The notes: a model not told the origin generated them from the letters alone. A stretch of 64,000 nt of DNA from a virus (IMGVR_UViG_3300033463_000022:22542-86541), one strand, 5' to 3'. Counted from the stretch's first letter, positions 1,213 through 32,482 are shown. Numbers and translations: made by a program.

Positions 1213-2139
1213 ATGGCAAATATCAATTCATTAACCAGAACAAATGCAACATCTTCCATTTATGGCACAAGGAATGTGCTTACGGGTCTTAGTTCGGGAC
1301 TTGACACCGAAGCTATGATTGAAAATAGTGTTTCGGGATATAAAATGAAAATTGAGTCCTTGAAACAAGAGCAAGACCTAATTGGATGGAAACAGGACGC
1401 TTATGGTAATATTATTGATAAAGCCACTAAGCTAAGCAGCAATTTTTTCTCTTATGGATCAAGCACAAACTTACTAAGTAATGGAATCTATGAAGCGGAA
1501 TCTTCTGAAAAGCTGACCCGCGCACTAAAAGACTTTGTTACTCAGTACAACGATTTAGCAACTACTCTAAGAACCGAATTCAAAACCCCCCCTAGCGACA
1601 GCGGCAACAAACCTCTTACAGAGAGCGATAAAGCCGATATGTCAGAAAACGCTATTAAGAACTATGAGGATAAGGCAAAGCAGGGCATCCTTTATAACGA
1701 TTCTGACATTACAAATTTTTATATGAAGTTAACTCAAGCAGTTTCCGCAAACTCTGCTGAGTTATCTAAACTTGGAATTAAGACTCGTTATGAAAGCGGT
1801 CTAACCACCCTTTCTTTTGATGAAGATACATTTAAGTCTGCGGCCGGAGGTATGGAGGAGCTACATGGCTTGATGAATAGGGTCAAAGGGGTAACCGAAA
1901 CCTATACTTCAACCTCGTTCTCTAACCCCGGCATCTTGAATAAGAAGGCGAGTAAGACTGACACACGTTCCGCCTGGAACCAAGAAGCCGCACGCATTGC
2001 CGAGCGAATTAAAATTCAAGAATCTCGCATGAGCCAGAAAATAGATTACTATACTCGTCAGTTTACGGCTTTGGAAAAGCTGATGAATATTATGAATAAT
2101 CAAAGCGAGATGCTTAACGGTTTAATGCTCGGTTACTAA
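1213..2139 (+). CDS. fliD: FliD-like flagellar filament cap protein homologue (308 aa)
   Basis: N-terminal LTGLSSGLDTEAMIENS and C-terminal IDYYTRQFTALEKLMNIMNN resemble FliD terminal helices; strong RBS GAAGGAGCGGATATAAT-ATG. Confidence 0.55.
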   Translation: MANINSLTRTNATSSIYGTRNVLTGLSSGLDTEAMIENSVSGYKMKIESLKQEQDLIGWKQDAYGNIIDKATKLSSNFFSYGSSTNLLSNGIYEAESSEKLTRALKDFVTQYNDLATTLRTEFKTPPSDSGNKPLTESDKADMSENAIKNYEDKAKQGILYNDSDITNFYMKLTQAVSANSAELSKLGIKTRYESGLTTLSFDEDTFKSAAGGMEELHGLMNRVKGVTETYTSTSFSNPGILNKKASKTDTRSAWNQEAARIAERIKIQESRMSQKIDYYTRQFTALEKLMNIMNNQSEMLNGLMLGY

Positions 2140-2632: not shown

Positions 2633-2724
2633 AAGGCACATACAGCAAATATTTATATAGCATAATGGTAATGCAATCGTCTTCAAAACGATCTATGCGG
2701 TTCGAATCCGTCTTTTTGTGCCTT
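2633..2724 (+). ncRNA. tRNA-like structured RNA: framing stem AAGGCAC/GTGCCTT enclosing a D/anticodon/T-arm core whose anticodon loop reads UCA
   Basis: D-arm GCAT-AATGGTA-ATGC, hairpin ATCGT-CTTCAAA-ACGAT, T-arm GCGG-TTCGAAT-CCGT; 20-nt insert ATACAGCAAATATTTATATA between outer stem and D-arm. Confidence 0.4.
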
Positions 2725-2732
2725 GAATCTAT

Positions 2733-3246: not shown

Positions 3247-3385
3247 TAGACTCATACAGCAAATTATACATATAGAAAATAAAAATTATAGTAAAAAGCT
3301 ATTTGGCTGCTTTTTATGACCCGATCCATGCGTCGAAGCAAGCGCGGTAGGGTGGGAGACAAAGCGCTACAGTTTCGTGAGTCTA
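3247..3385 (+). ncRNA. structured element closed by 8-bp stem TAGACTCA/TGAGTCTA, carrying the shared ATACAGCAAAT motif
   Basis: Inverted 8-mers enclose about 125 nt; 5' motif shared with elements at 2633, 4015 and 17566. Confidence 0.3.
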
Positions 3386-3399
3386 GCATTTATCCTTTA

Positions 3400-3876: not shown

Positions 3877-4014
3877 GACGCGCGTATCTTGGCTTTGTAT
3901 AGAGTGTGACGTACTTAGCCTCGTAGAAAGCACACCTTACCAGCCTGAGGTAGAAAAGTGGCGGGTTTGGGACGCCCGCTAAAGAAAGGCAAAGTCCCAA
4001 TTATTGATTAGAAT

Positions 4015-4128
4015 AGGCGCACACAGCAAATTTTTACTGATAAAGTAATTTTTAGTGCATTGGTAGCACATTAGAATGTTTAATCTAAAAGAGTGGGTCC
4101 GAATCCCACAAAAATACTTTTTGCGTCT
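4015..4128 (+). ncRNA. tRNA-like RNA with an 8-nt anticodon loop (ATGTTTAA) and AT-rich acceptor-like stem, framed by outer stem AGGCGCA/TGCGTCT
   Basis: Core 4046..4117: TAATTTT-TA-GTGC-ATTGGTA-GCAC-A-TTAGA-ATGTTTAA-TCTAA-AAGA-GTGGG-TCCGAAT-CCCAC-AAAAATA-C; CACAGCAAAT motif in the 5' insert. Confidence 0.35.
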
Positions 4129-4282
4129 AGAATTGATTAAAAGCTGGAAGCAAGTCCTAGAGGGCGACGTCCTGCAGGCGGTTCGTACTGGGCAACCAGC
4201 TTTTACACAAAATTTGGTATGCCCTAGAAAATTGTAGGGCAAAATCTTATAAAGATGCCACAAGTTTTTTTATATATAATAG

Positions 4283-8214: not shown

Positions 8215-9189
8215 ATGAAGTTATAGATACTAGTCCCTCAATATAAAGAGACGGATGAAATTATTAAGTCTTTGCTGGATTCGCTTTTGATCTAGCAAAA
8301 TGTTGACTTTAATGAATTTAGCGTTATAATTGTGAATGATGGAACGGATGTTTGTTTAAGTGATAAATTACTTACTTCTTATCCGTTTAAAATAGATTAC
8401 TATAAAGCTCCACATCGAGGAGTTTCTGCTACGCGTAATACCTGTCTTGACTATGCAACGGCTGATTATGTCATGTTTTGCGATGCCGATGATATGTTTT
8501 ATAATGCGTGCGGACTGTATTTAATTTTTAGAGAGATTAATTTAGGATTTGACACGCTTTCTTCTAAGTTTATAGAGGAAGGACATACTGATAGCGGTGA
8601 AGTCGTGTATATAAATCGAGAGAACGATAGCACTTTTGTTCATGGTAAGGTTCATCGGAGGTAGTATCTAATAGATAATAACATCAGATGGAATCCAGAA
8701 CTTACAATTCATGAAGATAGCTTCTTTAACTCTCAATGCCAACTGTATACTGATAAGCCAAAGTATTTGAATGAGTCCTTTTATCTTTGGAAGTGGAGAC
8801 CCGACTCCGTCTGTAGGCGCGATCCTGAGTATATATTAAAGACTTATCCCTGTTTAATAGATAGTATAGACTCTTTAGTTGATAAACTTGAGCGAGATGG
8901 GAAGCATGAGAGAGCTGTTTATTATACGGCTTATTTATTGTTCACCAGCTACTATACTATTAATAAACCCTAGTGGAGAGATAAAAAGAACCTTGACTAC
9001 TTAATGAAAATGGAGTTAAGGTGCTATTAGTTTTTTACCAAGCATGAGAGTAAATGGAAAGAATTTCCATTAAAATCGGCTATGGAATTGAGTTCTAAAT
9101 TGCGAGTTTAGGCTATTAATGAAGGTATGCTATTGGAATAGCTTACCTTAGATTAGTGGCTAAATAAACTTATTATGAACTATAAATAA
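8215..9189 (+). CDS. family-2 (GT-A) glycosyltransferase, 324 codons with 8 in-frame TAG
   Basis: ILVPQYKETDEI...VIIVNDGTDV and YVMFCDADDMFYN (DxD) motifs; single frame open from 8215 to TAA at 9189 only if TAG is sense. Confidence 0.7.
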
Positions 9190-16266: not shown

Positions 16267-17466
16267 ATGCGTATTCAACACAATGTCACCGCGATGAACA
16301 GCTATCGCAACTTCAACACCAACAACTCCAATCTCAGCAAGAACCTTGAGAAGCTCTCTTCTGGCTACAAGATCAACCGCGCTGGAGACGACGCCGCAGG
16401 TCTGGCAATCTCCGAGAAAATGCGTGCATAGATCACTGGCCTCGAGGGCGCAACCAAAAACGCCAAGGACGGCATTTCCCTTATCCAGACCGCAGAAGGC
16501 GCACTTACCGAGGTACATTCGATGCTCAACCGTATGACTACTCTTGCCGAGCAGTCTGCAAACGGCACTTATGATAACGACGTCGACCGTACCCAGCTCC
16601 AGAAGGAAGTAGATGCGCTCAAGACCGAAATCAACCGCATTGCCGATTCCACCAACTTCAACGGCATCAAGCTTCTTGATGGCAGCCTTGGTGGATGGAA
16701 CAACACCACCGATATCACCGATTCCATGACTTACACTAGCTTCGATGTTTCTGGCGGCAAGCTCAAGAACGGCGACGCAGTCACCGTTACTCAGAGCGCT
16801 AGCGGCATGGATATTAAGTCGGTCACCGTAGGCGGTGTGACTATCGCAAAGGCCGATCTGGCTGGTAAGGGTCTTACTTGGGAAGCAGATGCCGACAATC
16901 CCGCAGGGAAGACTGGCGCATATAAGTTTACTCTCAAGGTCTCTGACCGCTCCAAGGCAACTGCCGAAGTCGCCGACGCCATTGGCGAAGGTCTCTCGGT
17001 CGCTGTCAACGTAAAGGAGAAGGTTACCTCCAATACTGATCTCGCGTTCACCACTGATGGCACTGGCGGCGGTCTGACTCTTCAGATTGGCGATACCAGC
17101 GACGACTTCAACAAGATGAATGTTCTTGTTGGAGATATGCACACCCAGGCTCTGGGCATTGCTGATATTGATATCAGCACCCAGGAAGGTGCATCCAGCG
17201 CTATGGATCTTATCAAGAACGCTATCAACCAGGTCTCTGACACTCGTGGCGGTCTTGGTGCCCTCCAGAATCGTCTTGACCACACCATCAACAACCTCGG
17301 AACCATGCGCGAGAACATTCAGAACGCTGAGTCCAACATCCGCGATACTGACGTCGCAGAGGAAATGATGGCGTACACCAAGAACAACATTCTGAACCAG
17401 GCTGCTCAGGCTATGCTTGCGCAGGCGAATCAGATGCCTCAGGGCGTACTCCAGCTCCTTCAGTAA
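16267..17466 (+). CDS. fliC: flagellin (FliC/Hag family), 399 codons, 1 in-frame TAG read as Gln
   Basis: [16 protein letters not shown]...[51 protein letters not shown] and C-terminal [15 protein letters not shown]...[16 protein letters not shown]; the universal MRAQI Gln is encoded by TAG. Confidence 0.9.
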
Positions 17467-17565
17467 TACGCAAACTGCGGAGGGGCTTCAATGCCCCTCC
17501 AAAGTAAAAAATTTGCAATAATTAAAAAAATATTTTATAATATATTTGTAAGAATTAAGAAAGGC

Positions 17566-17674
17566 ACTTACAGCAATTATTTACATAATGTAAATGTCGT
17601 AGGTTCAACTCCTACTTCCGCCACGCGGCAGAATAGCTCAATGGATAGAGCGTTACAACTATATTTTGTGCCTT
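17566..17674 (+). ncRNA. circularly permuted tRNA-like (Y-RNA/YrlA-like) element framed by AAGGCAC/GTGCCTT
   Basis: Order is anticodon 3'-strand TGTAA, variable ATGTC, T-arm GTAGG-TTCAACT-CCTAC, acceptor 3' TTCCGCC, tight loop ACGC, acceptor 5' GGCAGAA, D-arm GCTC-AATGGATA-GAGC, anticodon 5'-strand TTACA; RNA ends sit in the anticodon-stem position and carry TTACAGCAAT. Confidence 0.4.
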
Positions 17675-17684
17675 GTTTGTATAA

Positions 17685-17758
17685 TCCGGCTTAGCATAAT
17701 AGTAGTGCAGGGGTCTCTAAAACCTCGGGACTCGGAGCGTAACCGAGAGCCGGTGCCA
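17685..17758 (+). tRNA. candidate amber-suppressor tRNA, anticodon CUA (reads UAG), with Gln-like identity elements
   Basis: Acceptor TCCGGCT/AGCCGGT (1:72 unpaired), D-arm GCAT-AATAGTA-GTGC, stem GGGGT/ACCTC with loop CTCTAAA, T-arm CTCGG-AGCGTAA-CCGAG, discriminator G73, CCA encoded; D and T loops noncanonical. Confidence 0.5.
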
Positions 17759-17813
17759 TCGCAAGCAAGGTTACTATCTCTATCAGTAGCCTTGCTTTTT
17801 TCTTTTTATATCT

Positions 17814-17889
17814 CCGTCGGTAGCCAAGTTGGTAAGGCACCGCACTTTTAATGCGGGTATCGCGGGTTCAAGTCCCGCCCGACGGACCA
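17814..17889 (+). tRNA. tRNA-Lys(TTT)
   Basis: Acceptor CCGTCGG/CCGACGG, stem CCGCA/TGCGG with loop CTTTTAA, T-arm GCGGG-TTCAAGT-CCCGC, A-CCA encoded. Confidence 0.7.
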
Positions 17890-17893
17890 ATAT

Positions 17894-17969
17894 GCGGGTG
17901 TAACTTAATTGGCAGAGTAGCGGTCTCTTAAACCGAAGGTTGCAGGTTCAACTCCTGTCACCCGCACCA
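17894..17969 (+). tRNA. tRNA-Lys(CTT)
   Basis: Acceptor GCGGGTG/CACCCGC, anticodon loop CTCTTAA, T-arm GCAGG-TTCAACT-CCTGT, A-CCA encoded. Confidence 0.65.
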
Positions 17970-17976
17970 AATAAAT

Positions 17977-18055
17977 GTCAGCGTACCCGAAGAGGCGAAC
18001 GGGCCGGTCTGCAAAACCGTGATTTCCACCGCGGGTTCGATTCCCGCCGCTGACT
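17977..18055 (+). tRNA. tRNA-Cys(GCA) candidate with long variable region
   Basis: Acceptor GTCAGCG/CGCTGAC, anticodon loop CTGCAAA, T-arm GCGGG-TTCGATT-CCCGC; no encoded CCA. Confidence 0.45.
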
Positions 18056-18132
18056 CGGTCACAAGAGTATGCCTTCTCGTGGCGTGACTGTTTTTACCAA
18101 ATACTCAATATTAGATAAGGAGCTGTTTAATT

Positions 18133-18795
18133 ATGGCATACATCTATTAGATTACTAATGATGTAAACGGAAAAATTTATATAGGTAAGACAACGCTTCC
18201 TACTATAGAAGAACGATTTAAATAGCACTGTAGAGATAGTAAAAGGACACGGTGCGAAAAGCGTCCGCTTTATGATGCAATGAATAAATATGGCATTGAA
18301 CATTTTCATATTGAGGAGCTTGAAAAAGTTGACGATATAACAAAATTAGAAGATCGTGAAACCTATTGGATAGAACAAAAATGTTCTTTTAAAGAGGGGT
18401 ATAACGCCACAATGGGTGGAGATGGAACGCCGTATATAGATAGGCAAATGGTAGCAAAACTGTGGTCAGAAGGTTTAACTTGTAAGGCAATTGCCGTTTT
18501 AACAAAACATGATGCCGGTAGTATTAGTAAAATACTAAAAACTGAAAATATAGCCACAGCTAAAGAAATCCAAGAAAACGGAATAAAAAGTTTAAAGAAA
18601 CCTGTTTGTCAAATCGATCCATCAACAGGAGATATTGTGGCAGTTTTTAATTGCTTACGAGATGCTAGCAAAGCGATGCTTGAATAGGGGTTTACTCATT
18701 GTCAGGTTAGTACTGGAGCCACCCATATTAGTCAAGTTTGCGCTGGCAAACGTAAAACATTTGCCAGCTTCGCTTGGAAGCTATTAAATATTTAA
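18133..18795 (+). CDS. GIY-YIG homing endonuclease (220 codons, 3 TAG)
   Basis: MAYIY-Q-ITNDVNGKIYIGKTT...YWIEQK; C-terminal helix-turn-helix-like repeats. Confidence 0.75.
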
Positions 18796-18822
18796 ACCAA
18801 GAGAGAAAAAGGAGAATGAAAG

Positions 18823-20343
18823 ATGAACACTTTGCTTAAGTCCATGAAAGAGTCTCAGAACTATAAGTTGACCGAGAACGGTGGCGTTTCCTACAAGTCC
18901 ACCCTGTCCGGTCTGCTCGACCTGTTCGCGATGGGCGGCTCCTATCGTTCTCGCTCTGACGACGACTGTATCCTCTTGTTCAAGAAGGCTTTCGCAGAGG
19001 ACGAAGTGCACGCATTGCGTTGCCTCTTCTACCTTCGTGACTGCCGCGGCGGCCAGGGTGAGCGTCGCTTCTTCCGCGTTGTCATGAAGTGGCTGGCTAA
19101 CGAGAACACCGAGGCTGCTCGTCGTAACCTTGAACACGTTCCTGAGTTCGGCCGCTGGGATGACCTCTACGCTTTCCTCGGCACTCCGCTCGAGCGTGAG
19201 GCTATGGGAATGATCCGGCACCAGCTCGCTCTGGACGTTCAGTGCAAGACCCCGTCTCTGCTCGCCAAGTGGCTGCCGTCCGAAAACGCTTCGTCTCTCA
19301 AGACTCGCGCTCTTGCTACGAAGACTCGTCGCTTCCTGATGATGACCTCGAAGCAGTACCGTAAGGTTCTGTCTACGCTTCGTAAGCGCATCAACGTCCT
19401 TGAGCGTCTTATGAGTGAGGGCCGTTGGGACGAGATCGAGTTCGATAAGATTCCGTCTAAGGCGGGCCTTATCTACCGCAACGCCTTTGCTCGTCACGAC
19501 GTAGAGCGTGCCAAGAACGAGAACGTCCAGACCTATGCTGACTTCGCTAAGGATAAGACCACTAAGGTCAACGCAGAGACTCTCTATCCTTGCGATGTTG
19601 TGCATAAGGCTCTTGGCACTCGTAGCTACTGGGGCGGACATCAATCCGCGATGGATGCGACTGAGCGCGCTATGTTGAATAAGTACTGGGATAATCTTCA
19701 CGATTACTTCCAGAACGCTGTGTTCAACGGTGTTGCTGTTGTTGATACGTCCAGTTCCATGTGGAGCTGTCGCGGCAACGTGAAGGTTGCTCCTATGGAC
19801 GTGGCATGCGCCCTGGGTATGTACTGCGCTGAGAAGTGCAATCCGAACAGTCCGTGGCACGGTCACTACATCAGCTTCTCTCACCAGGCTCGTCTTGTTG
19901 AGATTGAGGGTGTAGACTTCGTGGATAAGGTTCGCCGCATCCGCGACCACGACCTCTGCGAGAACACCAACATCGAGAGCGTGTTCGAGCTTATCCTCAG
20001 CCTCGCGGTGAAGAACCGCGTTCCGCAGAAGGATATGCCTAAGAACATCGTCATTATCTCCGATCTCGAATTCGATGAGGCTCAGGGGTACGATCGTCGT
20101 TCCAATGAGACCGTTATGGAAAAATGGGTTCGGAAATATGAGGAGTGCGGATATACTTGCCCTAAGATTGTCTTCTGGAATGTTGATTGTCGAAATGACA
20201 ATATTCCCATGAAAGACAACGGCAATGTCACTTTTGTGTCGGGGTATAGTCCCTCCCTTTTCGAGCAGCTCCTTACCGGCAAAACCGGTTTGGATTTCGT
20301 GCTCGATAAGCTCGACAGCGAAAGATACTCCTGTATCCGCTAA
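18823..20343 (+). CDS. TROVE-like plus vWA (MIDAS) domain protein, Ro60/Rsr-like; GC-rich and TAG-free
   Basis: N-terminal pattern NGGVSYKSTLSGLLDLF..GGSY and RDCRGGQGER resembles the Ro60 TROVE N-terminus; MIDAS VAVVDTSSSM...IVIISDLEFD; strong RBS AAGGAGAATGAAAG-ATG; GC content far above flanks. Confidence 0.55.
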   Translation: MNTLLKSMKESQNYKLTENGGVSYKSTLSGLLDLFAMGGSYRSRSDDDCILLFKKAFAEDEVHALRCLFYLRDCRGGQGERRFFRVVMKWLANENTEAARRNLEHVPEFGRWDDLYAFLGTPLEREAMGMIRHQLALDVQCKTPSLLAKWLPSENASSLKTRALATKTRRFLMMTSKQYRKVLSTLRKRINVLERLMSEGRWDEIEFDKIPSKAGLIYRNAFARHDVERAKNENVQTYADFAKDKTTKVNAETLYPCDVVHKALGTRSYWGGHQSAMDATERAMLNKYWDNLHDYFQNAVFNGVAVVDTSSSMWSCRGNVKVAPMDVACALGMYCAEKCNPNSPWHGHYISFSHQARLVEIEGVDFVDKVRRIRDHDLCENTNIESVFELILSLAVKNRVPQKDMPKNIVIISDLEFDEAQGYDRRSNETVMEKWVRKYEECGYTCPKIVFWNVDCRNDNIPMKDNGNVTFVSGYSPSLFEQLLTGKTGLDFVLDKLDSERYSCIR

Positions 20344-20420
20344 CAATATGGAAATTGACTGGGCAAAAGAAGTTTGACTAGCCCAGTCAATTTCCATATA
20401 ATATGAAAGGAGCGGATAAT

Positions 20421-22437: not shown

Positions 22438-22742
22438 TGCCTCGAATGAGTGGACATAGCAAGGAGCGCTCCGTCGAGCGAGTAGATGGCGTTGATAATT
22501 TCTCCGACGCCCGCAAGTATGCTAAGCAAGCTTGGCAGAGCGGGAACACAATTAATCACTATATTAAATATCCCAAGTTTTTTAGTTATCTGCAAAACAA
22601 AAAGAATCAAACATGTACTTGCTCATTAAGAATTTATAAGGATAATATTTATATATGGAGAGGACGATTGAGGACACTTGTAACTGTCCATCCAATACCC
22701 GATAGATATATTAAAGAAATGGAAGTGATAGATAATGGCTAA
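22437..22742 (+). CDS. hypothetical protein (101 aa)
   Basis: Translationally coupled (TAATG). Confidence 0.4.
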   Translation: MPRMSGHSKERSVERVDGVDNFSDARKYAKQAWQSGNTINHYIKYPKFFSYLQNKKNQTCTCSLRIYKDNIYIWRGRLRTLVTVHPIPDRYIKEMEVIDNG

Positions 22743-23538
22743 TTATCATAGTGATAAATGGATTATGGATAGAATGATGGAGCATTACAAAGAAGGGTGC
22801 TCCATCATTCCAGAAAAACAGGTGGTTGGTCTCTTTTATCAAGGGTCTGGCAACTATGGATTAGATGTTGAAACCTCTGATGTTGACACGCGCATGGCTA
22901 TCGTACCTACTTTTCACGATATTGCGATGAATAAAAAAGCGATTAGTACCACACACATTCGGGCCAACGAAGAGCACATTGACCTAAAAGATATTAGAAA
23001 TCTTTGTGCAACCTTCAAAAAGCAGAATATGAATTTCGTCGAGCTCCTTTTTACACCCTATAAAGAAGTGAACCCCCTCTATCAAGAGCAATGGGATAGG
23101 CTCGTGCGGGAACGCGAGGTCATCGCGCGTTACTCTCCCTATCAGGCGGTCAAGACCATGAAAGGTATCGCTATGGAGAAGTACCATGCGATGGAACACG
23201 AATATCCGTCAAAGTTGGAAGTCTTGGCTAAGTACGGCTACGACCCGAAACAACTCCACCATCTTTTGAGGGTACTCGACTTCTTGGACAGATATATCAG
23301 AGGCGAGGCTTATGAAGATTGTTTGCGGCCGCGCCCTGCCGACCTTGAGTACCTTAAAAAGGTGAAAATGGGATGCCATGACCTTGAAACCGCGCGCGCT
23401 ATCGCGAACGCCGCAATTAAAACCGTCACCGATATCGCTGATGGTTATACTTCCGCCCACGAATGCACTTGCGATCCCTACGCTGAGGAACTAATCGACG
23501 ATGTGCAATATGAAATTATGAAGATTGCCGTAGAATAG
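22735..23538 (+). CDS. putative nucleotidyltransferase (pol-beta superfamily)
   Basis: GSGNYGLDVETSDVDT matches the G[SG]x9-13D.D NTase motif. Confidence 0.5.
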   Translation: MANYHSDKWIMDRMMEHYKEGCSIIPEKQVVGLFYQGSGNYGLDVETSDVDTRMAIVPTFHDIAMNKKAISTTHIRANEEHIDLKDIRNLCATFKKQNMNFVELLFTPYKEVNPLYQEQWDRLVREREVIARYSPYQAVKTMKGIAMEKYHAMEHEYPSKLEVLAKYGYDPKQLHHLLRVLDFLDRYIRGEAYEDCLRPRPADLEYLKKVKMGCHDLETARAIANAAIKTVTDIADGYTSAHECTCDPYAEELIDDVQYEIMKIAVE

Positions 23539-23549
23539 GAGTTAAAATA

Positions 23550-23774
23550 ATGTATCTATATTTTGAACACTCTAATGGCGATCTCTCTTTCATCTGCGAA
23601 TGTAGCAAGGAAGAGGTCGACAAAAAGATTACGGAGTTTGTCCACTCCATCAACCCTAATTACAAAATTCCCTATATGCGTTCTTGGGGTAGCGAAGACA
23701 ATTTCATCACTTACGACATTGGAAGCCACACTGAATTCTTTCATCTGGTGAAAGATCGTCGTTTCGAGAACTAA
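23550..23774 (+). CDS. hypothetical protein (74 aa)
   Basis: ORF with GGAG RBS. Confidence 0.4.
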   Translation: MYLYFEHSNGDLSFICECSKEEVDKKITEFVHSINPNYKIPYMRSWGSEDNFITYDIGSHTEFFHLVKDRRFEN

Positions 23775-24012
23775 TGCTCTTTTGACCTAAGCATTTTTAT
23801 TTGTTATAATAATTATAGACACTTGAGAAAGGAGTAACTCAAATGAATATCTCTATTGGCGCGACCGTTTATGACAAACGATTCCCCGACACAGTAATTG
23901 GTAAGGCGGTATCCATCAATAGCAAGACTCAGGTAGCAATCATCGAAACCATGCGAGGTTGGAGTGTACTCCCTACTTATATGATTGAAATGAATGGAGG
24001 TCGAAAGAACTA

Positions 24013-24291
24013 ATGCCAGGTAGAAAAAGTCAATACTCAGCGGAGTTTAACGCTCAGATTAAAACAAATTTGCTTATGACCTTGGACGAAGCAACCGAGG
24101 CAGACATCCCCACGACAGATTGGATACAGAGAAATAATATTATCTTGTCTAATGTCACGCCTCAAAAGCTGTCGAGGAGCTTGAATGAGCTTGCAGATAT
24201 GGGGCTTGTAGTTAAAGGGAAGAACAGGGCCGGCAGGATGGTTTATAGACTGAAAGCCAATATGGAGAAAGAGGGGTACACGTTCGAATGA
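24013..24291 (+). CDS. hypothetical protein (92 aa)
   Basis: ORF. Confidence 0.4.
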   Translation: MPGRKSQYSAEFNAQIKTNLLMTLDEATEADIPTTDWIQRNNIILSNVTPQKLSRSLNELADMGLVVKGKNRAGRMVYRLKANMEKEGYTFE

Positions 24292-25055
24292 TAAAGGCGT
24301 TGACAGCTTTAGGAATTATTGGCGCGACAATTTATATTATTATCTTTTGCTTCTGTCTATTTTCAGAAAGACATTTCATTTTCCCCTTTAGATTTCTCAA
24401 TTCTCTTAAAGATTACTATGAATGGCGAAATTCTAGCTACGACTTCTCTATTCTTAAAAGAGAGGGTGGTATTTCTCATATAATGCCTAAGAATCTCCCC
24501 ATTCTCGAATTTGATAAGTTCCTTGATTTATATTCCATTAACCCTAAGAAGTATGATATTGATGGAACTTATGCAGTAAAGTATAATGAAAGTAGTAAAT
24601 ACTATAACTGCTATCAAGCTGTCTTTACTTTCTCTTATCCCGACTGGCTGCGTTATGATGCTTGGAAAAAGAATAATAAACAGCAGAAAGCGGCTTTTGA
24701 AAGCGATAAACGCAGTGCTGTAGCTCAGGTCGCCATGTACGATATGCTGAAAGACGCAGAACAAGATATTGAAAAGCTGAAAGCTAAAAGCCAGCAAGAG
24801 ATGGAAGCAGCCGCAAAGAAGGCGGCAGAGATTGGTCAAAGAGTAGCCGTTAATAACGAAGAGTTTGTTGATTTTCTTCAAACTCTTGGAGCGTGCGGGG
24901 ACGCGATGTTGTCGGGCGACACATCTAGCTCTGAGGCGCCTCAGCCCTCCCCGCCGCTCCCAGATATGACCTTAATTGCTAACTGGCCCGATTATATTGA
25001 ATGGGAAGATCGGGCAGGCCGCCGTTGGTATCAACAAAGAAAGAAAGGAAGATGA
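24288..25055 (+). CDS. hypothetical membrane-anchored protein (255 aa)
   Basis: N-terminal TM helix, coiled-coil centre, Pro-rich tail. Confidence 0.45.
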   Translation: MIKALTALGIIGATIYIIIFCFCLFSERHFIFPFRFLNSLKDYYEWRNSSYDFSILKREGGISHIMPKNLPILEFDKFLDLYSINPKKYDIDGTYAVKYNESSKYYNCYQAVFTFSYPDWLRYDAWKKNNKQQKAAFESDKRSAVAQVAMYDMLKDAEQDIEKLKAKSQQEMEAAAKKAAEIGQRVAVNNEEFVDFLQTLGACGDAMLSGDTSSSEAPQPSPPLPDMTLIANWPDYIEWEDRAGRRWYQQRKKGR

Positions 25056-25061
25056 TAAGTA

Positions 25062-26444
25062 ATGTCTGAACACGTCGGTTATATCGTGAAGGTTGAATTC
25101 CTTCGTCCGCACTCTAACGCTGATCGCCTCAATATTCTCACCGTTTTCGGCGAAGATACCTGTGTTTCTAAGGAAGTTCAGGTTGGCGATATCGGCATCT
25201 ATTTCCCTTGCGATCTCCAGCTGAGCGAGGAGTACTGCGACCAGAACCACCTTTGCCGCAAGAAGGCAGATGGTACTCCCGATACTGGTTATCTTGAGCG
25301 CAACACTCGTCATGTGACCGCCATCAAGCTCCGCGGTGAGAAGTCTAGCGGTCTCTATATGCCTCTCTCTTCTCTTGCTTACTGCGGCAACGCTTCCTTT
25401 GAGGTCGGTCAGAAGATCGACATGGTGAACGGTCATGAAATCTGCCGCAAGTATATCCCCCGTTCTAACACCCGCCAGGGGCAGGTTAGCGAGGGCAACC
25501 GCACTCGCAAAAAGCGCGTGCCTTTGGCGCCTCTCTTCGCTGAGCACGCTGACACTGAGCAGCTTGCTTACAACCTGGCAGCCTTTAAGCCTGGTGACCT
25601 CGTTGAGATCACCTTGAAGATGCACGGCACTTCTCAGCGTACTGGCTACCTGCCTAAGTACTCTGGCGAAAAGCGCACCTTCTGGCAGAAGCTGTTCAAT
25701 AAGCCTGGCACTCCTATCTACGACTGGGGTTATGTAACCGGCACTCGCCGCACCGTACTTAACGACTTCGACGAGGGCGGCTTCTATGGCAACAACGAGT
25801 TCCGTTCGGGCCCCGCCAAGTTCTTCGAGGGTAAGTTGGAGAAGGGTGAAACTGTCTACTACGAAGTCGTAGGTTTCACCACTTCTGGTGCGCCTATCAT
25901 GGCTTCTCAGTCCAACAAGCAGGTTGATAAGCTTCTTGGCGACAAGAGCTTCTCTCAGAAGTACGGCGAGACTACAGTCTTCTCCTATGGTTGCACTCCG
26001 GACGGTGATCTCCAGCAGGACTTCTATGTCTACCGCATGACCTTCACCAACGAGGATGGCTTCGTCGTAGAGTATACTCCCGACTTCATGCGCTATCGTT
26101 GCGAGCAGATGGGAGCTAAGTGCGTACCGCTGCTTTGGAAGGGATTTATTCCAAAGACGCCAAAGCGTTATCCATCCAATGAAGATGGCCTCACCTTCCG
26201 CGAGGAAGAGTGTAGCGCTGGCGAGTATGTTAAGGCAATCGCCGAGGAATACTTCGACGGTCCCGACCCTGTCGGTAAGACCCACGTTCGCGAGGGCGTT
26301 GTCTGCCGTATCGTAAATCGTCCGAAGTTCTGCGCCTACAAGCACAAGAACTTCTCCTTCAAGGTGCTCGAAGGCCTCATTAAGGAGAACGCGCAGGCTC
26401 CTGACATGGAAGAAGCCGAAGATATCAAGAGCGATGAAATCTAG
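25062..26444 (+). CDS. Rnl2-family ATP-dependent RNA ligase fused to an N-terminal tRNA-binding OB domain; GC-rich, TAG-free
   Basis: Nucleotidyltransferase motif I EITLKMHGTSQRTG matches T4 Rnl2 KIHGTN; N-terminal VKVEFLRPHSNADRLNIL resembles the Myf/CsaA tRNA-binding fold. Confidence 0.65.
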   Translation: MSEHVGYIVKVEFLRPHSNADRLNILTVFGEDTCVSKEVQVGDIGIYFPCDLQLSEEYCDQNHLCRKKADGTPDTGYLERNTRHVTAIKLRGEKSSGLYMPLSSLAYCGNASFEVGQKIDMVNGHEICRKYIPRSNTRQGQVSEGNRTRKKRVPLAPLFAEHADTEQLAYNLAAFKPGDLVEITLKMHGTSQRTGYLPKYSGEKRTFWQKLFNKPGTPIYDWGYVTGTRRTVLNDFDEGGFYGNNEFRSGPAKFFEGKLEKGETVYYEVVGFTTSGAPIMASQSNKQVDKLLGDKSFSQKYGETTVFSYGCTPDGDLQQDFYVYRMTFTNEDGFVVEYTPDFMRYRCEQMGAKCVPLLWKGFIPKTPKRYPSNEDGLTFREEECSAGEYVKAIAEEYFDGPDPVGKTHVREGVVCRIVNRPKFCAYKHKNFSFKVLEGLIKENAQAPDMEEAEDIKSDEI

Positions 26445-27048
26445 CTATAAACAAATAGCTTGCGGCGGCATGGTTGCTGGCTTCCTCATAGGGTGCGCAG
26501 CTGCTGCTAGTACCCTCGCCGCCGCAAGCCTTCCCTTTCTAAAACCCCTCATTTTTCCCTTCGCTCTTCTCTTGATTTGTTATGGCAGATTCCATTTATT
26601 TACAGGAAACCTCTATAAAATTGGAAGAGATGAGTCTCTGTCCGCAATAACTAAATATAACTTACTTGCACTTAACTACATTTCCAATTTGCTAGGAACT
26701 TTTTTGACGAGCCTTCTCATAAAAGTTCCAACAGAAGCAATGATGTTTGATAAAGCAGCGCTCGGCGCAAGGAAGATTTTTTTCTTAGGCATCGGTTGTA
26801 ATATCCTCGTATGTTTAGGTGTTAAGCTCTTTAAAGTCTCTCCTTTCGCTACCTATTGTTGCACTGCTTTGTTTGTAGCTTGCGGATTCGAGCACTCTAT
26901 AGCGGATATGTATTATGCGCTATGTCTTCCATTCTCTTGGTCGTATCTCCTAGGTTTTGGTTCTGTAGTAGTGGTTGTGACTGCTGGTAATATAATAGGT
27001 GCTTTTATTGTGATTTTAATAGAAAGGATAATGGAACATGACTCTTGA
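26434..27048 (+). CDS. polytopic membrane protein (204 aa)
   Basis: Five or six hydrophobic helices. Confidence 0.45.
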   Translation: MKSSYKQIACGGMVAGFLIGCAAAASTLAAASLPFLKPLIFPFALLLICYGRFHLFTGNLYKIGRDESLSAITKYNLLALNYISNLLGTFLTSLLIKVPTEAMMFDKAALGARKIFFLGIGCNILVCLGVKLFKVSPFATYCCTALFVACGFEHSIADMYYALCLPFSWSYLLGFGSVVVVVTAGNIIGAFIVILIERIMEHDS

Positions 27049-27292
27049 GCTATTCAAAAAGTCTATCTACAAAATCCGCGAGTTTGTTAATAAGGCATCA
27101 GAAGTCGAGAAGCTAACTGGCTTCAACTGGACAGAGTCTTTCATCGGTGACTTGTTCGACGTTTTCTATGATGTAATGATGCCTAATGCAACAGATGAAG
27201 ATTTCGAAGCCTTTGGCGATTTGCTATTTGCTAATGAAATCAAAGACGATGATATTGAAAATGTTTGGGAACTTTATAAAGAGAGCCTTTGA
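27038..27292 (+). CDS. hypothetical acidic protein (84 aa)
   Basis: ORF followed by a terminator hairpin overlapping the stop. Confidence 0.4.
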   Translation: MTLELFKKSIYKIREFVNKASEVEKLTGFNWTESFIGDLFDVFYDVMMPNATDEDFEAFGDLLFANEIKDDDIENVWELYKESL

Positions 27293-27366
27293 ACAAAGGC
27301 TCTCTTTACTTTTTTAATTATTTATATTATAATATTTATAGAAACTGAAAGAAGGTGTGAGTTCAA

Positions 27367-27582
27367 ATGAGAGATTTCTATGGAGAGATTGATAAGGCAC
27401 TGCAAAGCTATGAACAGTTTAAGCCCTGTCATATTCATAATACAGAATGGATTTGTAATCGCATCGACTGGTGTTATAAGTGGCGGAAAATCACCAAAGA
27501 GCAGATGGAAGAGCTCGTCAACCGTGTAATAGCAGTACTCGACAACGAGCTTGTGAAAGTTTGTAGAAAGAAGGGGTACTGA
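27367..27582 (+). CDS. hypothetical protein (71 aa)
   Basis: Promoter TTTACT-N17-TATAAT and GAAGG RBS upstream. Confidence 0.4.
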   Translation: MRDFYGEIDKALQSYEQFKPCHIHNTEWICNRIDWCYKWRKITKEQMEELVNRVIAVLDNELVKVCRKKGY

Positions 27583-28277
27583 TGGCACGATATGTGGTTT
27601 CCGATCTCCACGGCAGGTTTGACCTCTATCAAGAGATAGAGAAGTTTAGAAAGTCTGGAGATAAAATTATTTGTCTGGGTGACTGCGGCGACCGCGGTCC
27701 GCAGAGCATTGAAGTATGCCAAGCCATTGCAGATAATCCCGATTGGATGTGTCTGATGGGCAATCACGAGCATATGACGCTTGAAGCCCTTAAAGAAGAT
27801 ATATATTGCAGAAGTAGTAGTTACTATAATCCAGATGCCTACTCTGTTTCTTTTGATAATGGCGGAGAAGATACCTACAATGGCATGATGGAAGATCCCC
27901 GATGGTGGATTGACTATCTGAGCAAACTCCCTTATAGAATTAATATTGAGAACGAGCTTGGGCTCAATCTGATCCTCACTCATGCGGGCTTTGATCCGAA
28001 CTACGAACCGAAAAAGTGGGATTATATCTGGAATCGCTCTCATATCAATATGCCGTGGCCCGTAGACCACAAATTTGATAGAACTCTCCTAATCCATGGT
28101 CACACTCCGATCCCCGCTATTAACGAGGATTGGAAGCCGCAGGATGGCTCCTACTCCTATGCCGATGGGCATAAAATCAACATTGACGCCGGCAGTGTAT
28201 GGACGGGAGCGACAATCCTGCTCGACATTGACTCGTTCGACGAGCACATCTTCGATATAGAGGGGGAAAACAAGTGA
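27582..28277 (+). CDS. calcineurin-like metallophosphoesterase (Ser/Thr phosphatase or ApaH-like)
   Basis: DLHG, GDCGDRGP and GNHE motifs. Confidence 0.7.
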   Translation: MARYVVSDLHGRFDLYQEIEKFRKSGDKIICLGDCGDRGPQSIEVCQAIADNPDWMCLMGNHEHMTLEALKEDIYCRSSSYYNPDAYSVSFDNGGEDTYNGMMEDPRWWIDYLSKLPYRINIENELGLNLILTHAGFDPNYEPKKWDYIWNRSHINMPWPVDHKFDRTLLIHGHTPIPAINEDWKPQDGSYSYADGHKINIDAGSVWTGATILLDIDSFDEHIFDIEGENK

Positions 28278-28451
28278 GGGTATTGAGTGGATATTTCTTC
28301 ACAAAGCGCAATGGAATAGTTCCTGTCCCTCCCGACCATCTTGCCGTAATCAACCTCGCTCCGAAAACTTATTTTAATAATTTTGACCGTTCAATTGAAG
28401 AGAATGCTGACCTGCGTGGTTATATGTTTTTGATAGAAGGTGAGGATAAAG

Positions 28452-28964
28452 ATGACTCGTGAATTAAGAATTCTGGTAGGCGTGCCTGGAGTAGGAAAGT
28501 CTACTTGGGCGAAGCGTGAAGCGGCATGTCTCGATGCCGATGGATGGTCTACTGCTATCATCAGTCGCGACAAGATCCGTTTCCGCTTGCTCGACGAAAA
28601 TCCGACCGACGATTACTTTGCCTACGAGAATCAGGTATTCAAGGAGTTTGTTGACGAAATCAATGAATGCCTGTATCTTGGTGTTGATTACATATTTGCT
28701 GATGCCACTCACATCTCCTACAATTCGCGTGCTAAGCTGCTGCGTCAGTTGAAGATTGACCCCGACGTCGCGATTCGCTTCGATGTGTTCGACCTCCCTC
28801 TTGAAGTGGTACTTTATCGCAATAGTCTCCGTGAAGGGCGTGAATGCGTACCCGTCAAGGCTGTGAAGAACATGGTAGCTGCTTTTAAGACGCCCACTTT
28901 CCTCGAAACTGAAGATTGCGGCTTGAAGAATGACGTTTGTATTGTGAAGCACAGTAAGGAGTGA
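28452..28964 (+). CDS. polynucleotide 5'-kinase (T4 Pnk kinase-domain-like)
   Basis: P-loop ILVGVPGVGKSTWAK and CVPVKAVKNM parallel T4 Pnk GCPGSGKSTWA and VPIDVLRSM; RBS GGTGAGGATAAAG. Confidence 0.65.
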   Translation: MTRELRILVGVPGVGKSTWAKREAACLDADGWSTAIISRDKIRFRLLDENPTDDYFAYENQVFKEFVDEINECLYLGVDYIFADATHISYNSRAKLLRQLKIDPDVAIRFDVFDLPLEVVLYRNSLREGRECVPVKAVKNMVAAFKTPTFLETEDCGLKNDVCIVKHSKE

Positions 28965-28968
28965 AGCT

Positions 28969-29532
28969 ATGAATAAAATTTTTCTTACCTCAGATCTCCA
29001 TTTTATGCACGATCGGGAGTTCATCTGGGGTCCTCGCGGTTTCAAGAACGTTCAAGAAATGAACGAAGCGATCGTCAAGCGGGCCTGGGAAGTTATGGAA
29101 GCCAATGATGACCTCTATATTCTTGGCGACCTAATGCTCAAGGACGATGAAATGGGCTTAAAACTCATTAACCAGATGCCTGGCCGCAAGTTCATTGTCG
29201 CAGGGAACCACGATACCGATAGTCGAATTAATAAGTATATTGAACAGGTGTCTGGCCTCGAAGCGATTCAATACGCAATGAGACTTAAATACAACGGTTA
29301 TCACTTTTTTCTCACTCACTTTCCTTGTCTGACTGGCAATCTTGAACATGAATCCTTAAAGCAGACCACTTGTAACCTCTTCGGTCATACGCACTCGAAA
29401 GATAAGTTCTATCAAGATATCCCTTATATGTATAACGTAGCGGTTGACGCTCATGACTGCTATCCCGTCTCGATCGACGAGATTATTGAAGATATGGAAG
29501 CAAAAGTAAAAGAATGTAAGGAGATGCTTTGA
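28969..29532 (+). CDS. metallophosphoesterase (candidate 2',3'-phosphatase partner of the kinase)
   Basis: DLHFMHD, ILGDLM and GNHD motifs; directly downstream of the kinase. Confidence 0.6.
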   Translation: MNKIFLTSDLHFMHDREFIWGPRGFKNVQEMNEAIVKRAWEVMEANDDLYILGDLMLKDDEMGLKLINQMPGRKFIVAGNHDTDSRINKYIEQVSGLEAIQYAMRLKYNGYHFFLTHFPCLTGNLEHESLKQTTCNLFGHTHSKDKFYQDIPYMYNVAVDAHDCYPVSIDEIIEDMEAKVKECKEML

Positions 29533-31537: not shown

Positions 31538-32482
31538 ATGATTGGTGTTATTATCTTCTTCGCGGTTCTCGCTATTGCACTCAATATCACCTTTGGTATT
31601 CTGAGTAAGGAAAAGCCGTCTATGGACGACTATGATAAGCGGCTGTGCCACAAGTTCAAGCGCATTCGTTGGATTGCCACTATTGTTCCTACGGTCTTAA
31701 TGGTTTTAATTATCGCTTTTGCCGGTATCAAGATCATCGACTCCACCACCGTTGGCGTCGTAAAGACTTTCGGCAAGATTGACCACAGTATTTCTGGCGG
31801 TCTGAATTTTGTCAATCCGATTACCGACACAGTTACGACATATGACTTGAAGGTCCAGGCTCATGAAGCTTCCTTCTCGTCTTACACTAAAGATGCCCAG
31901 CCCGTCACCGGCGCCATTGAAGTTCAGTATTCTCTGAACCCCGCGTACATCCTTGATATCGCGCAGGAATACGGTACAATCGAGCAGCTTCAGGCGAAGC
32001 TCGGCAATACCATCGAAGAGCGTACGAAAATCGTCTTTGCTCGATATGGTGCGATGACGCTGCTGGAAAACCGCTCTAGCCTGTCCGCAGAAGTCACGGC
32101 AGAGGTTAAGCAGCTTGAAGAGCAGTTTAACGTAAAGTTCAACCAGGTTATCGTCCGCGATATCGACTTCTCTGATGCGTTCGAAGCTTCTGTTGAAGCT
32201 AAGATGGAAGCGGAGCAGGCTGCTCTGAAGGCCGAGCAGGAAAAGAAGACCGCAGTTATTAAGGCTGAGCAGGAGCAGGAAGTCGCTCGTATTGCTGCTC
32301 AGGCAAAAATTGCCGCCGCTGAAGGCGAAGCCCAAGCTTTGAAGATTACGCAGGAAGCTTTGGAGCAGATGCCCGAGAAGTGGATTCAGCAGATGTACCT
32401 CGAAAAGTGGGATGGCAAACTGCCCACCTACATGGTTGGCGATGGCACTAGCATTATGCTTACGCCTTCTCTTGGAGAGTAA
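31538..32482 (+). CDS. SPFH/band-7 (prohibitin/HflK-like) membrane protein
   Basis: N-terminal TM helix, SPFH core and C-terminal AEQ-rich coiled coil. Confidence 0.7.
   Translation: MIGVIIFFAVLAIALNITFGILSKEKPSMDDYDKRLCHKFKRIRWIATIVPTVLMVLIIAFAGIKIIDSTTVGVVKTFGKIDHSISGGLNFVNPITDTVTTYDLKVQAHEASFSSYTKDAQPVTGAIEVQYSLNPAYILDIAQEYGTIEQLQAKLGNTIEERTKIVFARYGAMTLLENRSSLSAEVTAEVKQLEEQFNVKFNQVIVRDIDFSDAFEASVEAKMEAEQAALKAEQEKKTAVIKAEQEQEVARIAAQAKIAAAEGEAQALKITQEALEQMPEKWIQQMYLEKWDGKLPTYMVGDGTSIMLTPSLGE

Follow-up and report, generated by a model that had tools for sequence, protein, structure and literature searches.

A 64,000-nucleotide (nt) stretch of viral DNA (IMGVR_UViG_3300033463_000022:22542-86541; referred to in its entirety as the window) contains an open reading frame (ORF) for a DUF2828/DUF7788 protein and, upstream on the same strand, a small RNA with a permuted tRNA-like domain. 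The most probable reading (about 0.72) is that this locus codes for a phage form of the Ro60/Y-RNA ribonucleoprotein. In this reading, the RNA (17561..17675) is probably the Y-RNA-like partner of the protein, and the results point to a widespread, previously undescribed phage counterpart of the Ro60/Y-RNA particle. Such particles are conserved from bacteria to humans, and we know of no established role for the tRNA-like domain of the bacterial Y RNAs. Ro60-type proteins bind Y RNA at the outer surface of the ring and the ends of misfolded RNA in its central hole, and YrlA is a stable RNA with tRNA modifications to which the Ro60-type protein binds.

A Ro60-like protein of the DUF2828/DUF7788 family

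The ORF at 18823..20343 was GC-rich (53.2% GC and 66% GC at third codon positions (GC3), compared with 42.6% GC for the whole window) and free of in-frame TAG codons, in agreement with an original prediction made from the sequence alone. Pfam searches of the predicted protein returned DUF7788 (1.9e-41) and DUF2828 (4.1e-29), the latter a family named in that prediction, with both matches above cut-offs. Furthermore, the protein matched the PHROGs family phrog_850, annotated as 'RNA-binding protein', over nearly its full length (residues 1-503; 6e-125). Homologues were present in 704 GenBank phage records, 700 of which covered at least 80% of the query.

An AlphaFold2 model of the protein (predicted local distance difference test 80.8, predicted template modelling score 0.81) was compared with the PDB using Foldseek. 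Each of the top eight matches was to Ro60 and spanned the whole length (best E 1.3e-7, template modelling score 0.59), and Ro60 was ranked top structurally by two methods. The modelled fold is a HEAT-repeat ring followed by a vWA domain, with DUF2828 representing the HEAT-repeat part and DUF7788 the vWA domain, which includes the metal-ion-dependent adhesion site known as MIDAS. The MIDAS motif VVDTSSSM is found at residues 306-313, and D308, S310, S312, T382 and D414 were invariant among 53 homologues. Because the model matches Ro60 above all else and the MIDAS residues are invariant, the protein is predicted to work like Ro60 at the level of the fold. The earlier description of a Ro60-like protein with a MIDAS-containing vWA domain is retained for the fold and the MIDAS residues, but not for membership of the TROVE family by sequence.

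The GC contrast had been interpreted in the original prediction as a sign of recent acquisition from a host, which we do not uphold. The homologous gene was GC-richer than its flanks in all 50 of 50 related phage loci (mean excess of 8.7 points), and the close relatives were all found on phage-like contigs. The GC excess is a family trait and no sign of recent host capture. An open frame of 537 codons runs antisense to the gene and is most likely a by-product of its GC3-rich codon usage, not a gene.

A tRNA-like RNA in permuted order

The element placed earlier about 1.1 kb upstream of the gene, at 17566..17674, is present and was delimited here to 17561..17675. In the reading of its sequence, an outer stem pairs AAGGCAC (17561-17567) with GUGCCUU (17668-17674), followed by an unpaired G at 17675, while the 5' strand of the stem is followed by the spacer UUA and the hexamer CAGCAA (17571-76). 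An anticodon-stem-like helix (UGUAA, 17589-17593, with UUACA, 17653-17657) encloses, in order, a 5-nt stretch resembling a variable loop, a T arm (GUAGG-UUCAACU-CCUAC, 17599-17615), an acceptor-like stem (UUCCGCC/GGCAGAA, 7 bp including one C.A mismatch, with an ACGC closing loop, 17616-17633), a UA joint, a D arm (GCUC-AAUGGAUA-GAGC, 17636-17651) and a single G. The RNA is a tRNA body circularly permuted, with the chain ends exiting at the anticodon-stem position; the arrangement with an ACGC-closed acceptor stem had been predicted, and both the sequence reading and the covariation described below bear it out. None of 200 shuffled sequences folded as well as the RNA, whose folding energy had z = -3.43.

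The Rfam YrlA model (RF02553) aligned end to end with the RNA (17561..17677, model positions 1-114) at 34.8 bits, an E value of 1.2e-5 for a 1-kb search, below the Rfam cut-off of 69. For comparison, a tandem-tRNA junction in the same stretch (17860-17918) scored 16 bits with partial model coverage. The YrlA architecture was found, comprising a stem formed by the ends, a T arm, a loop-closed acceptor stem, a D arm and an anticodon-stem-like helix. Thus, the earlier assignment to the YrlA type holds for the architecture and the full-length model alignment, but neither for the Rfam cut-off nor for the CGAA motif.

Homologues and covariation of the permuted RNA

Eighty viral loci encoding homologues of the protein at 54-68% identity were retrieved (numbered with an L prefix, as are further loci below). 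A dozen of these have the permuted element upstream, on the strand of the gene. In the resulting 12-sequence alignment, pairing reached 97.9% and 23 of 28 pairs showed compensatory changes. A covariance model built from this alignment (R1) scored the window RNA at 101.8 bits and recovered additional members, some of them in unrelated phages. Among 40 distinct sequences, aligned by fitting to R1 and hence biased toward the structure, 96.3% of cells were paired and both-side changes occurred in 27 of 28 pairs, with all five helices supported; slid controls reached at most 43% paired. The outer stem played no part in choosing the first sequences, yet it covaries fully.

Other searches were less productive: blastn of the locus against GenBank phages gave tRNA matches only, and nhmmer with the single RNA sequence gave few and weak relatives. 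A first structural scan for permuted tRNAs yielded mostly tandem-tRNA false positives, and an anticodon-stem criterion and inspection by eye were added. In a subset of relatives, the acceptor loop consists of N-CCA plus a 4-6-nt spacer, not a tetraloop (L047 4773-4891, L062 5817-5934, L064 1-95, L069 282-394 and L071 5799-5914, with further cases in L118, L160 and L164). Such a loop looks like the 3' end of a tRNA set against a 5' end and is reminiscent of the YrlA of Mycobacterium smegmatis.

In the window RNA (17578-85 with 17589-96) and at the corresponding positions of relatives, a local hairpin competes with the anticodon-stem-like helix, the 5' strand of which can pair alternatively with an upstream copy of its partner across a 3-5-nt loop. 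In a register-fixed test with cross-unit controls, all five pairs of the anticodon-like helix were present in 16 of 39 units, compared with 3% of controls (p = 8e-14), and the local hairpin was likewise complete in 21 of 39, compared with 12% (p = 1e-9); the permuted units split into several sub-architectures. A position-free version of the test gave no discrimination, as A/U-rich flanks pair by chance. Both alternative pairings change in step between phages. Since both are enriched over the cross-unit controls, a conformational switch is possible, and alternation between hairpin and helix would allow one in units of the window type.

A shared terminal module

All the weaker R1 matches kept both ends of the RNA while the middle diverged, and the ends define a module. 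It consists of a 7-bp stem, three nucleotides (often AUA) and CAGCAA, then a 3' loop rich in A/U and poor in G, and finally the complementary strand with an unpaired G after it. Across the 80 loci and the window, the 5' motif had 117 occurrences on the gene strand, compared with a single one on the opposite strand. A perfect 7-bp complement closed 101 of the 118 sites within 300 nt (12.6 with shuffled 7-mers), and the base after the complement was G in 100 of the 101. In 82 distinct units, positions 11-16, CAGC(A/U)A, are fixed by the search pattern; the remaining positions of the 5' end are inconsistent with a CGAA motif. The stem is specific to clades (AAGACNN, AGACCNN, AGGAANC, AAGAANC, UGGNCNC), with CAGCAA and the trailing G constant, a pattern expected for a protein contact beside a structural helix.

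The cargo enclosed by the module was a short hairpin in 45 of the 82 units, permuted tRNA-like in 20 and tRNA-like in normal order in 17. In the normal-order units, the module replaces the acceptor stem, and some of the permuted units hold a complete anticodon arm with the loop GUU, GAU or GUA. The single RNA reported earlier exists, but three further RNAs in the window share its terminal module (Table 1). The unit at 2633-2725 carries a D arm, an anticodon arm (loop CUUCAAA, anticodon UCA) and a T arm in normal order; Rfam scored a tRNA of 40.9 bits at 2651-2720, and ARAGORN made no call. The UCA anticodon would read UGA. The cargo of the 140-nt unit at 3247-3386 has no recognisable tRNA arms, while the unit at 4014-4130 holds a tRNA-like body with an 8-nt anticodon loop (Rfam tRNA 46.6 bits), reported by ARAGORN at 4045-4118 as 'tRNA-???' with the 4-base anticodon GUUU.

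Two other identities for the units were considered and rejected. A self-cleaving ribozyme does not fit the conservation of only about 20 nt, the arbitrary cargo and the lack of any Rfam ribozyme match at E<=10, and an integron attC-like DNA site disagrees with the single-strand conserved motif and the RNA-type cargo.

Association of the module with DUF2828 genes

The module tracks the gene among viral contigs. A blind pattern scan of IMG/VR viral contigs gave 125 matches, 41 closed by the stem and G and 84 unclosed. A DUF2828 homologue was found in the fetched stretch for 18 of the 41 closed matches and for 0 of the 84 unclosed ones (Fisher p = 8e-11), and these homologues, at 26-65% identity, were always on the strand of the module. 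With the general pattern (7-mer, N3, CAGCAA, complement, G), the 80 loci contained 148 modules on the gene strand and 12 on the other, and 144 of the 148 were upstream, within 6 kb. All of these association tests cover limited flanks. Six of 15 loci with both gene and module were without any tRNA gene. Modules directly beside the gene in tRNA-free loci were found in Rose5, L121, L135, L160, L168 and L185. The T5-like phage Bas32 has an array of 26 tRNAs without the module; in the 100 kb scanned of its 112-kb genome, no DUF2828 homologue was found and the two pattern matches, in coding regions, were at chance level.

The module adjoins the gene in every phage of the distant groups examined, with one to five units each. 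Three units are directly upstream of the gene in Listeria phage A511 (NC_009811.2), whose DUF2828 protein is gp178, Bacillus phage Tsamsa has five, and Enterococcus phage EFDG1 has three, two of which are tRNA-like (R1 scores of 63 and 56 bits). The Felix-like coliphages Andreotti and Bas63 have four units each, Vibrio phage KVP40 has one, and Mycobacterium phage Rose5 has three in tandem right after the gene annotated 'Ro-like RNA binding protein'. YrlA scores were 44.9, 34.2 and 28.4 bits for the EFDG1 units and 36.4 bits for Rose5, all against the same cut-off. The Bas63 protein gp130 is homologous to the window protein (33% identity, E 9e-70), and its array holds four module RNAs in unannotated gaps (record positions 82072-82906), none of which is an annotated tRNA; they are located at 82072-82138, 82239-82296, 82694-82761 and 82781-82906.

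In Bas63, the minus-strand 'hypothetical protein' coding sequences bas63_0137 and bas63_0138 overlie candidate RNAs (MZ501086, L212 24749-25023), and in Andreotti (L085 6650-7081) small minus-strand coding sequences likewise cover candidate Y-like RNAs in the tRNA array. These small calls are probably spurious. The A511 locus also has a ROOL RNA match (L082 2507-3058; 87.5 bits, cut-off 99.1) between tRNA-Pro and the three module RNAs with the DUF2828 gene, and an RtcB 'tRNA splicing ligase' 1.3 kb downstream of that gene. In EFDG1, a phage transfer-messenger RNA (L086 107-457, 140.6 bits) is found in the region of tRNAs and Y-like RNAs. LeBron-type mycobacteriophages encode an RNA ligase and a polynucleotide kinase, and LeBron gp53, a member of the DUF2828 family, is toxic on over-expression.

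Comparison with known Ro60 systems

YrlA RNAs are permuted-tRNA-like and encoded on the same strand as Rsr, at most 4 kb away, and were described near Rsr in 2014, including in 22 phages with annotated TROVE proteins (PMC4201824). The window RNA falls within that distance, with 1,148 nt between its 3' end and the start of the ORF on the same strand. A crystal structure reported in 2018 showed YrlA to be a 'circularly permuted tRNA with closed acceptor stem' (bioRxiv 10.1101/312249). The Rsr-YrlA system of Salmonella Typhimurium and M. smegmatis (RF02553) resembles the window locus in its ring and vWA protein, in an RNA gene on the same strand a few kb away, in a terminal protein-binding stem joined to a tRNA-like domain (T arm, closed acceptor stem, D arm), and in having several RNAs per genome with a common binding stem (YrlA, YrlB). 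In contrast, the phage protein is of the DUF2828/DUF7788 type without a TROVE sequence signal, and its RNA has a sub-threshold YrlA score. The binding-module motif of the phage RNA is N3-CAGCAA with a trailing G, not GNCGAA(N)G, and the second stem of YrlA is absent, with a local hairpin instead that competes with the anticodon-like helix. Furthermore, the system is phage-borne, and its cargoes include tRNA-like bodies with real anticodon loops.

In 2025, the Ro60 of Thermus phage phiLo was shown to bind two upstream-encoded Y-like RNAs with a CGAA motif and to recruit host polynucleotide phosphorylase (PNPase) (PMC12135203). The phiLo protein (PDB 9KOP, 9L5Y) is recognisable as TROVE, unlike that of the window; a stem-bulge-stem of its RNAs, Yrl1 and Yrl2, contains CGAA, and that study reported neither a tRNA-like character for them nor a CAGCAA module (PMC12135203). 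Bas63 gp130 is Ro60-like and counters the Ppl defence, with neighbouring tRNAs 'some of which are possibly Y RNAs' (bioRxiv 10.1101/2024.10.10.617714); that preprint named no RNA partner, whereas four module RNAs were located here. The window protein has about 11-14% sequence identity with Ro60 of the vertebrate Ro60-Y RNA complex (PDB 1YVP), and the window RNA differs from vertebrate Y RNAs in having neither the bulged-C GGUCCGA/UUGACC helix nor an oligo-U tail for La and in having a tRNA mimic as effector domain. The permuted tRNA genes of Cyanidioschyzon merolae share the order of 3' half before 5' half and a short linker at the acceptor ends, but the window RNA restores no functional anticodon loop and its ends are in a conserved non-tRNA module. 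No paper on the CAGCAA module, or on an RNA partner family for DUF2828, was found in a literature search that was not exhaustive.

Proposed function and alternative explanations

By analogy with Ro60 and the stem of Y RNAs, and at the same probability of about 0.72, the DUF2828 ring would physically bind the handle formed by the ends of the RNA, which would correspond to the Ro-binding stem, while the second module would serve as the effector domain, a circularly permuted tRNA-like one such as bacterial YrlA has. Most likely, the RNA would share its transcript with the four tRNAs downstream and then be trimmed back to the handle that the protein protects. By binding, the ring would shield the ends of the RNA and offer its tRNA-like cargo to nucleases or to factors that recognise tRNAs. 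By analogy with Rsr-YrlA-PNPase, phiLo Ro60-Yrl-PNPase and Bas63 gp130, the particle would most likely tether or gate host factors that process RNA or recognise tRNAs while infection proceeds, to the benefit of RNA quality control, repair or counter-defence. We infer such a factor and purpose (quality control, tRNA repair or counter-defence) from the neighbouring genes and the Bas63 phenotype. The protein probably holds a small RNA repertoire, since the handle carries other cargoes in three more window RNAs and in one to five RNAs per unrelated phage.

Several observations weigh against a Ro60/Y-RNA-like particle. TROVE (PF05731), named in the original prediction, was absent from the Pfam search of the protein at E<=0.01, and no Ro60 chain was found in the PDB by phmmer with the protein at E<=1 or by hmmsearch with a 53-sequence family profile at E<=10. 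The YrlA score falls short of the cut-off, and the CGAA-type Rsr-binding motif GNCGAA(N)G is not present in the 5' strand of the window RNA (AAGGCAC-UUA-CAGCAA). A strict upstream module was missing in 15 of 70 related loci, and the closest relatives (L001-L008) carry short-cargo modules only, without a permuted tRNA-like unit. Between the RNA and the ORF in the window lie the tRNA cluster and a homing endonuclease gene. The other three modules are about 15 kb away in another tRNA cluster, and the promoter-like match at 17513..17541 was no better than shuffled expectation. As the window modules sit in tRNA clusters, the module's linkage to the gene is confounded, in this lineage of phages, with its linkage to tRNA arrays.

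Another possibility is that the module belongs to phage tRNA-array transcripts, as a cassette for their processing or stability, and has no particular tie to the DUF2828 protein. It could, for instance, be a stem recognised by an RNase of the host or the phage, or a clamp protecting odd tRNAs, and the gene would merely neighbour the arrays. All four window units lie within tRNA clusters, several wrap tRNA-like bodies, and the DUF2828 gene adjoins a tRNA array in A511, KVP40, Tsamsa, EFDG1 and Felix-like phages. We nevertheless consider a cassette unlikely, given that modules stand beside the gene in the tRNA-free loci, that the T5-like array is devoid of them, that most tRNAs in the same arrays are unframed and that the module tracks the gene in the viral scan. 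An origin of the units at the DNA level, as mobile cassettes or recombination sites gathered in a hypervariable region of tRNA and homing endonuclease genes, would be suggested by the 7-bp inverted-repeat borders, variable cargo, several copies per genome and homing-endonuclease-rich surroundings. Such an origin is improbable: the repeat arms covary and are not conserved copies, strand asymmetry is strong (117:1 and 148:12), CAGCAA and the trailing G occur on one strand only, and the tRNA-arm cargoes show compensatory changes.

The permuted order itself raises the question of a genuine permuted tRNA gene of the Cyanidioschyzon type, whose product would be circularised and re-cut to a working tRNA. 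The 3' half does precede the 5' half, and some relatives have N-CCA and a spacer in the acceptor loop. However, the window acceptor stem is closed by ACGC without CCA, joining the ends restores no 7-nt anticodon loop on a 5-bp stem, and the sole hairpin at the anticodon position has a 3-nt loop. The ends are locked inside the conserved 7-bp stem, flanked by the single-stranded CAGCAA motif, not a splice motif, and an A/U-rich loop. Furthermore, cleavage by RNase P and the addition of CCA are possible on a Y RNA, as is known from the YrlA of M. smegmatis (bioRxiv 10.1101/312249). A working tRNA is, on these grounds, very hard to credit. Hardly any weight is given to decay of a tandem tRNA gene pair, which would have left the 3' part of the first gene and the 5' part of the second without function; tandem tRNAs do match permuted models weakly, as at the 16-bit YrlA match and in many false positives of the first scan, but the RNA is conserved by compensatory change across phages of Firmicutes, Actinobacteria and Proteobacteria and has a conserved non-tRNA module at its ends.

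An extension of the Ro60/Y-RNA-like particle, which we put forward tentatively and regard as doubtful, is that the CAGCAA handle is a universal adaptor by which the Ro-like ring carries a portfolio of tRNA mimics. The portfolio would comprise permuted bodies with closed acceptors, acceptor-less bodies displaying anticodon loops (UCA in the window; GUU, GAU and GUA in relatives) and forms with N-CCA acceptor loops. The particle might then act as a decoy or sensor for host defences that target tRNAs (anticodon nucleases, Ppl-type systems) or, alternatively, as a platform from which tRNAs of the phage or host, once cleaved, would be passed to the RNA ligase, kinase and phosphoesterase encoded nearby, with the competing hairpin and anticodon-stem helix as a conformational switch. 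If true, this would represent a new class of protein-RNA counter-defence device in model phages, among them Felix O1-like phages, A511 and KVP40.

The DUF2828 family is found in at least 704 sequenced phages, including genetically tractable ones (Felix O1-like coliphages, Listeria phage A511, Vibrio phage KVP40, Enterococcus and Bacillus phages and cluster L mycobacteriophages). With probable RNA partners and a compact, mutable candidate binding module, the question is directly testable. The module also accounts for unannotated gaps in phage tRNA arrays, flags spurious small ORFs and provides a new RNA family for annotation.

Genomic context in the window

The tRNA cluster reported next to the RNA is real and consists of four genes with Rfam tRNA scores of 40.8-71.5 bits (Table 1). 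Because a promoter-like site precedes the RNA and a terminator-like hairpin is found 3' of tRNA-Cys, the RNA and the four tRNAs may form one transcript; in promoter and terminator scans of the region, the site count was not above shuffled expectation, and the sites are plausible ones only.

Table 1. Positions of RNAs, genes and signals in the window
Feature	Position	Strand	Details
FliD-like flagellar cap protein gene	1213-2139		FliD_C 3.8e-19, FliD_N 1.5e-8
Second module RNA	2633..2725	+	AAGGCAC-AUA-CAGCAA...GUGCCUU-G
Third module RNA	3247..3386	+	UAGACUC-AUA-CAGCAA...GAGUCUA-G
Fourth module RNA	4014..4130	+	UAGGCGC-ACA-CAGCAA...GCGUCUA-G
Flagellin-like gene	16522-17466		Flagellin_C 5.6e-29, Flagellin_N 5e-12
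Promoter-like site	17513..17541	+	TTGCAA-17 nt-TATAAT; 10/12 consensus matches; 20 nt 5' of RNA
Probable Y-RNA-like RNA with permuted tRNA-like domain	17561..17675	+	Sequence reading, Rfam YrlA, covariation
tRNA(CTA), amber suppressor anticodon	17685-17758	+	ARAGORN
tRNA Lys(TTT)	17814-17889	+	ARAGORN
tRNA Lys(CTT)	17894-17969	+	ARAGORN
tRNA Cys(GCA)	17977-18056	+	ARAGORN
Terminator-like hairpin with T run	18068..18096	+	Terminator scan; 3' of tRNA-Cys
Homing endonuclease gene, presumed GIY-YIG type	18133..18795	+	3 in-frame TAG; between tRNAs and Ro-like gene
Antisense open frame	18784-20397	-	537 codons
ORF, predicted Ro60-like ring protein	18823..20343	+	506 amino acids, ATG to TAA, zero in-frame TAG
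Nucleotidyltransferase	22735-23550	+	PHROGs phrog_388, 6.3e-19
RNA ligase	25062-26450	+	PHROGs phrog_968, 2.9e-65
Phosphoesterase	27582-28277	+	End-healing/sealing set; phrog_547, 9.5e-42, given for phosphoesterase
Polynucleotide-kinase-like P-loop kinase	28452-28964	+	PHROGs phrog_505, 2.9e-16
Phosphoesterase, second	28969-29532	+	End-healing/sealing set
Band-7/SPFH protein gene	31538-32482		Band_7 4.3e-25

Downstream of the Ro-like gene, at a distance of 2.4-9 kb, is a set of genes for RNA end-healing and sealing (22735..29532), in which Pfam detected Metallophos and AAA_33. The context suggests a functional tie between this RNA-repair set and the Ro-like particle.

TAG appears to be reassigned to a sense codon in this phage genome, probably Gln, on the basis of the tRNA with a CTA anticodon and the three in-frame TAGs of the gene at 18133..18795, the translation of which begins MAYIY*ITNDVNGKIYIGKT. 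We take this gene to be of the GIY-YIG type from its motif, and its in-frame TAGs presumably correspond to Gln positions of relatives, assuming GIYQIKN as the motif of I-TevI. Readthrough of TAG lengthens many ORFs in 4396-34683 (for example 8215-9189, with 8 TAGs), while the Ro-like gene, the RNA-repair genes and several further ORFs contain none.

The phage-like contig also encodes a FliD-like flagellar cap protein and a flagellin-like protein, the gene for the latter being GC-rich as the Ro-like gene is. A Band-7/SPFH protein gene is present in the window, and in mycobacteriophage Rose5 the Ro-like gene has a 'band-7-like membrane protein' gene 1 kb upstream of it (L081 2104-2982); its occurrence in both may be a coincidence.

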